The position numbers were made by a program. This document shows, piece by piece, positions 27,001 to 30,000 of a stretch of 33,207 nucleotides of DNA. The stretch comes from a virus (taxonomy: Duplodnaviria; Heunggongvirae; Uroviricota; Caudoviricetes). The stretch's first letter is position 1; every line of letters starts with the position of its first letter. The stretch lies in IMG/VR virus record IMGVR_UViG_2617270945_000015, one strand, 5' to 3'.

Positions 27001-30000
27001 ACTTTGGTATCACCACCGCCTTTTTTTCCGCCCATTATGGCCCCCTGGATAACAAAAAACCCTGCCGGGGCAGGGTCAGAATGTGAATTGCAATTGGTTT
27101 ACACACGATAATGAATACAGTGGCAGTCAGACCGCTATCCTGAACACCATGAAGCCATCCTCATCATCCGGCATTCGCTCAAAGCCCAGACGTTTTCCCA
27201 GCCGGATAAATCCCCGTCTTGCCGTATGAAATTCAGCCCAGCGTCCGCCAGCCAGACGGGTTAATGTCTTCACCTCCGGCAGATAACGCTCAACGCTGTT
27301 ACTCCCCGTACACACGCCCAGCAACACCAAAACATAAGGGATACCATCAGCACTGAGCACAGAACGCAGCACCAGAAAGCCATCAGGTGCCTCAAAACAA
27401 AACGCCTGCTTTTTAAGGCAGGCGTCTTTAACTTCATTCATAAATTCAGGGTTGCGGGAATTTCTCACAACACGCTGCATATACCGGAGAATTTTGTCGT
27501 CCATTCTCTCACCAGAAACGGGTGCCATATCGGCTGAACCTCAGCAACCAGTTGACGGGGGCTTTCGTCCCCGTCGCGGTTTTCCTACTGCTTACACTGT
27601 AAGAACGCCGCAAACTCCGCTCCCCACAAATTCAGCCGGAACTCACACAACGAGCCGTGTAACATCCAGATGGTGAAGATTACCGTCATACAAATTGTGA
27701 CGGTGATGAGCGATTTTTGCGACATAGCGCTTGCCTCCTGAGTGGAGAGGCGCTAACCTTCTACTTGCTTAAGGTATGATGGTTAGGGCCTCGGGTTAAA
27801 CAAAATGTTTGACTCGGGGCCTTTCCACATCAGGCCTTCAGGTTCACCTTCCAGCCATCAGCCGAAAGACACCCGCGCATAATCTACGATTTTTGCCCTG
27901 CACGGGCAACAAAAAACCCGCCATCACAGCGGGTTATGACATGTTGTCGGGTATTACTCAGAATTTCAGGCCAATGCCTGCAAATAAACCATCAGTTTTC
28001 CAGTCGCCAGAGCCTGAGCTTTCATAAGTGACGTCCATAGTAACACTTTCATTGAAGTTAAATTGCGCGCCGACAGACCATGCAATAGACGTTTTTTTGG
28101 TGCTGTTACTTTCAGAAAAACTACCTACACCACCATTAAGATTGTCGTTAACTTTCAAATCATAAGTTACTTTTGCAACCGCAACACCTGCCATTGAATA
28201 CACACTGAGGTATTCATTAAACCGCCACGAAGGACCGGATAGTAGACTCCAGTAATTAGCCCTGATATCAGTTCTCGCTGAAGCTGCCGGTTTTTTTACC
28301 TCTCGTGATGGATCGGAAGGCTTAACATCAATGAATGCCTGTGCATTAGTCATGGATCGAGCCCATGCAAAAGAGGTTATAACACCGATCTCATCCGTAA
28401 TCTCATAACGATACTTAATGTTCATTCCCAAGGGACTTTTCTCTTTACCATCATGGCCCCGGACAAACGCATCGTCATATTCTCCAGGTGAATTGAAATA
28501 GTTTTCATTCACAAAATTGTTAAAGGTATCAAGGTTATGAAGACTTAAATCCTTAACAAAATTATTCAGCCCGGATAGCTGAAGGTGAGCGAATCCAAGG
28601 GATACGGTACTATCACCAGATGCAGCATGTGCCTGTGCAGTTAATCCACCTAAGCCCAGAGTTGCGCACACAAGAAATTTTGTGATACTTTTCATTTTAA
28701 GAATCTTCCTATATTAAAAACATTGTTCTCTCTGTCCTTTCCACATTTTTGATTATTTACCATCCTGCCTGGAAATAAAAAATAAAAATTTTTCTTAAAA
28801 TGATTGATAAATTTTATTGTGCTAATCATACATTGAAGTATTAATAACAAGAACTTTGTCTACATAAGGCTTTCGAATATCCCATGTTGCACCACCTGAA
28901 TAATGCTCACAGGAATATATTTTATTTCCTGTAGCGCCAGTGGATGTGGTATAAATCGGTCGGTCATAAGGAGTTCTTTTCCAGTTATAATACCCGACCA
29001 GTGCAGGCATAATTGCGCATGGATATCCAAGGTCCTTTTCAAATTTGATATCAACAGGTATTAACTTCGCGTCAAGCAGCATCATTTCGCCATGGTAAAT
29101 CATCTCACCCAACGGATTATACATGGCGATACCATACTCAGAAGGTTGAGTAACCATATTCGCAAAAGCATAAACAGTCGTAACACCAGGATTCGTTCCC
29201 CTGACAATTTGATGAAGCCTTAAGGCATGATATCCATCAATCTGTTCATGCGTGTACATGACATCGGCCTTCTTCTCTGTTCTGATAAAGAAAAAACAAC
29301 TTTTTCCTGACGGAATTGACGTTTTAAAAAAAGCCTTCTCAGTCGCCGGAATAGTTCCCTTATTGATAAGACACTGAGGCGTAAACCCCGGGCTTATCCA
29401 CAAGCTGCCATCTGGTTTCGTAATGCTTAAACCATACATACAACTCACCCCCAGAATGTATAAATATATGACCCCATCCCCTGCTCAAGATTTGACCACA
29501 TCACCGTATTGCCATTAATGGTTATCTTCGGTACTTTCCGGTCCTTAAATACATTATTCCACGGAAATAATGAACAGACTGCCTGCAATGTTTTCCCTTC
29601 TGGTTTATTCGTATACGTTTTTGATCCCGACTCCGCCGTAAACCTGTCCAGGAAAAATATGGGAGTAAGCACGCCCGTAACATTAACATTATTTCTGTTG
29701 TATATTGCAAAACCATATTCTGCCAATGTCAGCCTCCGGCTCAGCTTAACCTGCCTATGCGAACAGCCAGGCGTCCGTTCTGGTCATAAACTTCAATTTT
29801 ATCATTGCGGATCACCAGCCCCACATTCTGATTAGAGTAACGAATTGTCAGTTGCCCTTGTGACGTAACACTGAAAAGGCCTCCAATATTCAGGTTACCC
29901 TGAGAATCAACCTGAAAGTTTCCGTTTTGAATAACGGCACTCCGAATAACTGGCGAAGTGATACTTACCCCGGCTTTTACCTCATCCGCCACAACCTTCC

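Follow-up and report, generated by a model that had tools for sequence, protein, structure and literature searches.

In plasmid R1, translation of mok up to the Shine-Dalgarno (SD) sequence of hok is mandatory, and the target of the Sok RNA is the ribosome-binding site of mok (Le Rhun et al. 2022, PMC9841398). In Shiga toxin (Stx) phages, the function of sokW has been shown experimentally (PMC8621323), and dependence on RNase III and Hfq, induction by mitomycin C and effects on phage release have been studied on the hokW-sokW locus only (Takada et al. 2021, PMC8621323). The DNA analysed here (the window) comprises 33,207 nucleotides of a Caudoviricetes virus, IMG/VR record IMGVR_UViG_2617270945_000015, a 933W-like Stx-type prophage. 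Between its lom gene and its L0129 homolog lies what is very probably a type I toxin-antitoxin cassette of the hok/sok type. It forms a self-contained moron of about 390 bp, and its lack of mok is the sole departure from the hok/sok paradigm. The functional unit exceeds the span given in the first-pass annotation, running from about 27909 (the -35 of the hok promoter) to 27520 (the end of the fbi box). The toxin gene is already known, having been annotated, catalogued and tested; new here are the assignment of an antisense gene, the tac/fbi architecture with its covariation, the separation from hokW-sokW and the absence of mok in this subfamily.

The toxin gene occupies 27585-27725 on the minus strand, with an ATG start and a TAG stop, and encodes 46 amino acids (aa; MSQKSLITVTICMTVIFTIWMLHGSLCEFRLNLWGAEFAAFLQCKQ); the translation matches exactly the peptide that had been proposed. 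Its placement in the Hok/Gef family was borne out by a hidden Markov model search with Pfam HOK_GEF (PF01848), in which the score of 33.2 bits exceeded the gathering cut-off of 22 (E=4e-08) and the match covered profile positions 6-42 of 42. In addition, PHROG 251 ('MokW-like host killing') matched the toxin peptide over its full length with 85.8 bits (E=2.8e-24). The transmembrane helix and SLCE signature claimed for the peptide were recovered both from the residues and from the alignment with HokW, HokA, HokB and HokC. Residues 6-22 (LITVTICMTVIFTIWML) are uncharged and hydrophobic and correspond to the N-terminal helix, and all seven residues conserved in more than 80% of Hok proteins are present, read directly from the sequence as M1, C12, T14, L26, C27, E28 and E37 (M1, C16, T18, L30, C31, E32 and E41 in the numbering of the sequence logo). 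M1, C12, T14 and E28 are invariant in a separate alignment of eight Hok sequences. Among named proteins, the nearest is HokA with 46% identity, followed by HokW with 35% and HokB and HokC with 24%. No other Hok-like open reading frame (ORF) was found in the window, and PADLOC returned no model matching the toxin peptide or its neighbour.

Compared with the 933W copy, the toxin gene shows seven synonymous and no non-synonymous differences. Among four 46-aa variants, in which length and key residues are kept, the ratio of non-synonymous to synonymous substitution (dN/dS) is 0.2-0.4, and these comparisons indicate that the peptide is under purifying selection. The identical peptide is sequence 72_1589 of a recent Hok catalogue, cloned under an arabinose promoter in plasmid LRP157 (Escalera-Maurer et al., bioRxiv 10.1101/2025.08.07.668861); it belongs to the high-abundance cluster 72, whose sources are RefSeq genomes, phages and prophages. 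In that preprint, toxicity was seen for 42 of the 45 Hok homologs tested; 72_1589 is not among the three listed by name as non-toxic, from which we infer by exclusion that it is toxic on arabinose induction. Since 72_1589 is the exact peptide, the arabinose-inducible expression proposed in the first-pass annotation had already been carried out, with toxicity as the outcome so read.

The hok promoter is predicted at 27881-27909 on the minus strand, with a -35 TTGCCC (27909-27904), a 17-nt spacer and a -10 TAGATT (27886-27881). Like the antisense promoter described below, it was placed by homology, and both of its hexamers are kept in the P2-like phage P88 despite an unrelated upstream flank. 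The predicted mRNA start, around G27874, coincides with position 1 of the alignment of Rfam family RF01794 (sok/hok leader). The predicted full-length mRNA of 355 nt (27520-27874, minus strand) has its 5' end set by homology and its 3' end by the limit of the conservation shared with P88-type cassettes. Its fold has a z-score of -5.7. At the 5' end, a tac-like element (27858-27874; GGGUGUC..UCGGCUGA) pairs in the full-length minimum free energy (MFE) structure with an fbi-like 3' element (27520-27537; UCAGCCGA..GGCACCC), so that the mRNA is closed onto its 5' end by helices of 7 and 8 bp. In the same structure, the stretch 27775-27761 pairs with positions 27551-27538 of the 3' untranslated region (UTR), and the hok AUG pairs with the distal coding region.

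This fold was compared across 42 distinct cassettes, drawn from viral contigs with a two-part 23-base pattern and from annotated records. As many as 89% of the alignment cells were paired, against 36-44% in slid controls; the fold has a slight advantage here, having been built from the sequence of the window. The covariation score was 0.103, against about 0.04 in the slid controls. Helix 1 of the tac/fbi closure was paired in 100% and helix 2 in 87%; on the fbi side, the three variable positions at which pairing is never lost change only by GC<->GU or UA<->UG. Compensatory double changes were found in 11 sequences at each of the column pairs 116/333 and 117/332 of the long-range helix. Without the fold, so large a difference in paired cells, and double changes at positions 210 nt from each other, would be hard to account for.

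The SD sequence AGGAGG (27739-27734) sits 8 nt 5' of the hok ATG, within a dcb-like box and SD/anti-SD hairpin at 27726-27758 on the minus strand, where GGUUAGCGCCUC (27758-27747) overlaps the anti-SD. In this hairpin, UCUCC (27748-27744) pairs with GGAGG (27738-27734), stacked on the pairing of AGCGC (27754-27750) with GCGCU (27730-27726). The SD-sequestering hairpin reported in the first-pass annotation was confirmed when the minus-strand RNA was folded: the SD is paired in the full-length MFE structure, and the probability that it is unpaired is about 0.00 in the full-length mRNA of the window. Over the 42 cassettes, helix 8 of this hairpin is paired in 100% and helix 9 in 72%, the position of the SD moving among variants; even where it shifts, every variant keeps a consensus SD at optimal spacing. 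The alternative pairing GAGGC-CUAAC / GUUAG-GCCUC is the RNAalifold consensus.

The hairpin noticed earlier behind the hok stop codon also proved to be real. It lies at 27554-27576 on the minus strand (GACGGGG 27575-27569 with CCCCGUC 27560-27554) and shows compensatory changes among relatives at columns 313/322 and 314/321 in 16 sequences. Since no U-run follows it on the mRNA strand, it is not the terminator of the hok mRNA, whose true 3' element is the fbi box at 27537-27520 and not this hairpin. By analogy with R1 hok, from which the protective role is taken (PMC9841398), it is the counterpart of the 3' stem-loop that would protect hok mRNA once processed. Read on the plus strand, the hairpin at 27553-27576 scores as an intrinsic terminator, the stem being followed by CGGTTTTCCT, and it may stop plus-strand read-through entering the hok/antisense region.

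No regulatory partner of the toxin had been named in the first-pass annotation; a Sok-type antisense gene can now be assigned by homology on the plus strand. Its predicted promoter (27731-27759) consists of a -35 TTGCCT (27731-27736), which overlaps the complement of the hok SD, a 17-nt spacer and a -10 TAACCT (27754-27759), with 7 nt from the -10 to the predicted start G27767. The hexamers, their spacing and their homologous position are the same as upstream of the annotated sokW of 933W/Sp5, and neither TAACCT nor the TTG of the -35 varies in any of the 42 cassettes. Primer YO-421 of Takada et al. (PMC8621323) alters TAACCT and can be read as the -10 mutation of sokW(pro-less).

The predicted antisense RNA of about 58 nt (27767-27824, plus strand), whose ends are predicted by homology with sokW, comprises a single-stranded 5' tail of about 14-17 nt followed by a hairpin of 18 bp and a UUU(CC) end, and folds with -28.1 kcal/mol (z=-5.5). 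All 23 distinct antisense variants show the tail, the hairpin and the U-tail, the 5' tail being the most variable part, as expected of the recognition element of an antisense RNA. The complementary Sok-target region of the leader (27767-27824, minus strand), located by alignment with hokW, contains a sokT-like hairpin and a single-stranded stretch, and extends from 28 to 85 nt upstream of the hok SD. A cis-encoded Sok-like antisense gene, homologous to sokW at the sequence level, is thus predicted opposite the hok leader, with putative expression and antitoxin activity. The sokW gene of 933W is annotated with its 5' end 9 nt inside mokW, and K-12 sokB and sokC are arranged likewise. Annotation pipelines leave the antisense RNA of this subfamily out because RF01794 scores it below threshold (35-48 bits against 59).

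The absence of mok was examined in the window copy and its relatives. In the window, no ORF starting with ATG, GTG or TTG reads into the hok start in any frame, and an in-frame TAG stands 10 codons 5' of the hok ATG. At about the position of the aligned mokW ATG there is an ATA (27776-27774), with a TAA 3 nt downstream, and a vestigial mok SD, GAGG (27792-27789), persists in the Sok-target region. Among the distinct relatives of the window cassette, mok is absent in 37/42. Because the mok leader ORF of R1, hokW, hokB and hokC is lacking here, translation of Hok would have to start from the toxin's own SD, and the antisense RNA would have to act from afar.

According to the proposed mechanism, the minus strand would give rise to the mRNA of about 355 nt for the 46-aa predicted inner-membrane Hok-family toxin. 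The fresh mRNA would be closed and untranslatable, with tac paired to fbi, the Sok-recognition stretch paired to the 3' UTR and the SD held in the anti-SD hairpin. Slow 3' trimming back to the stem-loop at 27554-27576, by analogy with R1 hok, would remove fbi; the freed tac box could then pair with GGAAAGGCCCC, and the released GAGGCCCUAACC with GGUUAGCGCCUC, overlapping the anti-SD and thereby loosening the SD. The open pairing of this relay is the RNAalifold consensus. A constitutive, presumably unstable plus-strand RNA of about 58 nt (27767 to about 27824) would pair with the leader and silence the mRNA, trigger RNase III, or both. Transcript ends, processing, antisense expression, mode of repression and biological role are all predictions at this point.

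Partition-function modelling of the truncated mRNA gave a probability of an unpaired SD of 0.08 for the window, 0.31 for 933W and 0.34 for TL-2011c, and blocking the antisense target returned it to 0.02 or less (0.01 in the window). The modelled switch runs in the expected direction in the Stx-phage variants, though weakly. Alternatively, a ribosome could use the single-stranded target of the antisense tail as a standby site. Such a standby-ribosome model is known for tisB; at the present locus it is hypothesised by analogy. It is possible, and is proposed here tentatively, that cluster 72 represents a mok-independent branch of hok/sok, in which Hok would be translated from its own SD after a relay from tac/fbi to tac/ucb to the pairing of the vestigial mok SD with dcb, and the Sok-like RNA would repress from 28-85 nt upstream, either by blocking the relay or by occupying a standby site. 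Candidate roles of the cassette would be prophage retention, exclusion of other phages or, as reported for hokW-sokW, assistance in lysis.

Several results weigh against the identification of a functional hok/sok cassette or against parts of the proposed mechanism. Regarding the toxin, the best NCBIfam model, the HokA equivalog NF007290, scores 38.4 bits against a cut-off of 89; NF007279, which covers the Hok subfamily in general, also falls short, with 22.7 bits where 73 are required. The toxicity of 72_1589 is taken by exclusion from the text of the preprint, not from a figure, and hok is frameshifted or carries deletions in some Stx2a phages. Regarding the RNAs, the match to RF01794 (27714-27874, mRNA strand) misses the gathering score of 59 with its 35.1 bits (E=7e-6); the same family scores 35.6 bits in the 933W copy, 47.9 in P88, 113.5 in hokW and 118.3 in hokC. 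A generic sigma-70 consensus scan called neither the hok nor the antisense promoter, and the antisense terminator has a UUU run only. Conservation of TAACCT is by itself no proof of a promoter, since the hexamer also lies inside the conserved dcb/anti-SD RNA box. Since translation of mok is mandatory in R1, a mok-less copy might be silent. Finally, the probability of an unpaired SD after truncation is 0.00 in the P88 and L174 variants, where the model gives no opening; because the modelled effect is small in the window and absent in these two variants, the refolding switch is put forward as a hypothesis.

The possible silence of a mok-less copy leads to the reading that the locus is a translationally dead relic, in which the RNA architecture and the ORF are kept but the loss of mok ended Hok synthesis, the remnant hitch-hiking like the inactivated hok loci of K-12, where hokA/mokA/sokA is disrupted. 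The lack of mok in any frame speaks for it, together with the requirement in R1, the damaged hok genes of some relatives and an SD that, in the window copy, is still about 92% paired once the mRNA is truncated in the model. Nevertheless, this reading is unlikely: the peptide is under purifying selection, as judged from the substitutions relative to 933W and the dN/dS values given above, and every variant keeps a good SD at optimal spacing. Moreover, two phage lineages without relation to each other have kept the cassette, as have 1,550 of 5,426 E. coli genomes, and an antisense gene would be kept to no purpose if the toxin were never made. That the ORF arose by chance in an intergenic spacer and is no gene at all, as the gap left empty in the original 933W and Sakai annotations might suggest, has practically no probability left, being refuted by the Pfam and PHROG matches at curated thresholds, the selection on the peptide, the structured mRNA and the reported toxicity.

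A further explanation would replace mok by a relocated leader ORF, whose translation from the AUG at 27830 across the sokT hairpin would open the hok SD and would be blocked by the antisense RNA. This AUG (mRNA position 45) and the preceding GAAGG are invariant in all 42 distinct cassettes, the upstream ORF lies entirely within the antisense target, and in 5/42 cassettes it reaches and crosses the hok start in the +1 frame, as R1 mok does. In the window it has 15 codons, with its stop at 27785-27783, about 45 nt before the SD. However, its length varies from 8 to 78 codons, it can lie in any of the three frames with respect to hok and the encoded peptide varies too, so that a relocated mok with a conserved coding frame was rejected. 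In 37/42 cassettes it stops 5' of the hok start, the spacing between GAAGG and AUG is just 4 nt, and the conservation of the AUG and its surroundings is also explained by RNA pairing (the tac/ucb helix and a GGCC stem). Translation of this leader ORF in place of mok is thus very unlikely, and a hok/sok-type cassette with a Hok gene dependent on its own SD is the preferred reading.

The distribution of the cassette was studied next to its structure. The 481-bp region was found in 198 phage records, mostly of Stx1- and Stx2-converting phages and also of the P2-like Xuanwuvirus P88, and the E. coli genomes counted above for the same region are complete ones. The cassette is common to Sepvirinae and P2-like Xuanwuvirus phages and has sharp boundaries. 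Homology with the P2-like copies begins at the -35 of the hok promoter and stops right after GGCACCC; since it runs exactly from the -35 to fbi, the cassette behaves as a mobile moron of about 390 bp, and its presence in P2-like prophages implies that it moves between unrelated phage lineages. On the lom side, the cassette edge is marked by the intrinsic terminator of lom (27915-27935, minus strand; AACCCGC...GCGGGTT followed by TTTTTT), detected by a terminator scan. Identity is lower in the coding region (61-67% in two variants) than in the UTRs (80-97%).

In loci L004, L005 and L049, and in many IMG/VR loci (e.g. L137, L184 and L241), the cassette adjoins gene D at the end of a P2-like prophage; the hosts of these P2-like (Xuanwuvirus P88-type) prophages are E. 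coli and Salmonella. When genome contigs were searched with a 16-mer leader pattern, nearly all of the 120 matches were due to chance and came from unrelated phyla, the only real ones being a Salmonella P2-like prophage and a probable contaminant contig. The latter (L022, NZ_JPLE01000227.1, Xanthomonas pisi DSM 18956) is an 857-bp contig near-identical to the lom-hok region of E. coli Stx phages, and is most likely contamination of the Xanthomonas assembly. Two damaged hok alleles were observed in Stx2a phages. In Stx2_8243 (L007), an extra G in a GGGG run (around columns 250-255 of alignment A2) gives a 44-aa product with an altered C-terminus, and in Stx2_EH2011 (L008), an 8-nt deletion near the start leaves a 24-aa product; the RNA elements flanking hok are intact in both.

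The description of the toxin ORF as unlisted holds for the original 933W and Sakai annotations, and not for current RefSeq, PHROGs or the Hok catalogue preprint. The Prokaryotic Genome Annotation Pipeline names the ORF 'Hok/Gef family protein' (WP_000078907.1), RefSeq phage records call it 'MokW-like host killing', and the name used in P13374 is 'prophage host toxic membrane protein'. Nothing is annotated in the gap in the original record of 933W (AF125520, with the peptide at 45660-45797) or in the annotation of Sakai Sp5, which is presumably why the ORF was seen as unlisted. Fozo et al. arrived at 14 Hok/Gef genes for Sakai. A literature search on the hok gene of 933W next to lom yielded nothing specific to this locus.

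Identity with the published hokW-sokW was considered and rejected, because its primers are absent, the toxins share 35% identity and the position in 933W is different; the hokW primers had no match in the window at up to 3 mismatches. In 933W, hokW-sokW lies at 58460-58734 near attR and the present hok gene at 45660-45797 next to lom, about 13 kb apart. The present locus is therefore a second, separate hok cassette, and both cassettes occur in 933W and Sp5. Collinearity between the window and 933W (79-94% identity) is broken only at 13587-15765, where unrelated DNA with plus-strand ORFs of 286, 171 and 308 aa replaces the 2.2-kb segment 57649-59854 of 933W (L0135, L0136 and hokW/mokW/sokW). 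Since the hokW segment is replaced in this way, the prophage of the window has the lom-adjacent hok and not hokW-sokW.

As for the neighbouring genes, the upstream lom ORF (27958-28695) matches Pfam Ail_Lom with 105 bits and is an outer-membrane gene. Downstream of hok lies a 133-aa ORF of uncharacterised function, to which PHROG 610 aligns from residue 9 (profile positions 1-124 of 124). It was probably mis-started, the true start being ATG 27504 (MDDKILRY...) and not ATG 27528 on the minus strand, and with a start likely at 27504, the fbi box at 27537-27520 falls outside coding sequence. Elsewhere in the window, a perfect 9-bp tandem repeat (CATCAGCTT x 8) at 15700-15771 lies in frame in a minus-strand ORF as (KLM)n and could be a slippage-prone tract. 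In addition, Rfam sRNA-Xcc1 (RF02221) matches 11952-12037 on the plus strand with 73.4 bits against a gathering score of 53, and also 933W near its attR end (L003 21137-21225, 69.1 bits).

As a gene call, the locus is of little import, the toxin being already named in RefSeq, PHROGs and the Hok catalogue, while the reference annotations of 933W and Sakai Sp5, phages of medical importance, are still without it. The sole functional study of hok in Sp5 deleted hokW-sokW and left the second hok cassette unmentioned. The phenotypes that it reported were small (phage release changed 2-fold, and there was a delay of 40 min; Takada et al. 2021, PMC8621323), and they could be confounded because the second cassette remains. 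Lacking mok, the cassette lends itself to studying how hok can be translated, and controlled by an antisense RNA, when there is no leader ORF. If true, a mok-independent branch would mean that the textbook hok/sok mechanism has been rewired beside the classical hokW-sokW in Shiga-toxin phages.

Among known systems, hokW-sokW occurs in the same phage group and shares with the locus the cassette plan, the antisense promoter hexamers TTGCCT-17-TAACCT and, as predicted here, an antisense RNA of 58-71 nt with tail and hairpin; the leader and the 3' stem-loop are homologous and were aligned element by element. HokW, however, has 51 aa and is 35% identical to the 46-aa toxin, and hokW has the in-frame mokW extension and a 71-nt sokW in 933W, whereas the present locus is without mok; Takada et al. 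(2021, PMC8621323) make no mention of the lom-adjacent hok. The Hok catalogue contains the identical 46-aa peptide in cluster 72 and deliberately left Mok, Sok and mRNA structure aside, so that the antisense gene, the tac/fbi elements and the lack of mok are not in it. With hokA, the toxin shares FTWM..SLCE..E.AAFL.CK and 46% identity, together with weak DNA similarity in the coding region and 3' UTR; HokA has 50 aa against 46 here, and K-12 hokA has a mokA frame, disrupted by IS150. With tisB/istR-1 and zorO/orzO, to which there is no sequence or family relationship, the analogy is functional only: a sequestered toxin ribosome-binding site, processing for activation and an antitoxin that pairs with the 5' UTR far from the SD. 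The R1 hok/sok (parB) locus is alike in its Hok toxin, its tac/fbi-closed mRNA, the protective 3' stem-loop, the ucb/dcb pairings and the leader antisense RNA, which is predicted for the present locus. In R1, however, mok is required and Sok blocks its ribosome-binding site, whereas the present toxin has its own consensus SD and no mok, and R1 hok/sok is a plasmid stability locus, whereas the present cassette is a prophage moron.

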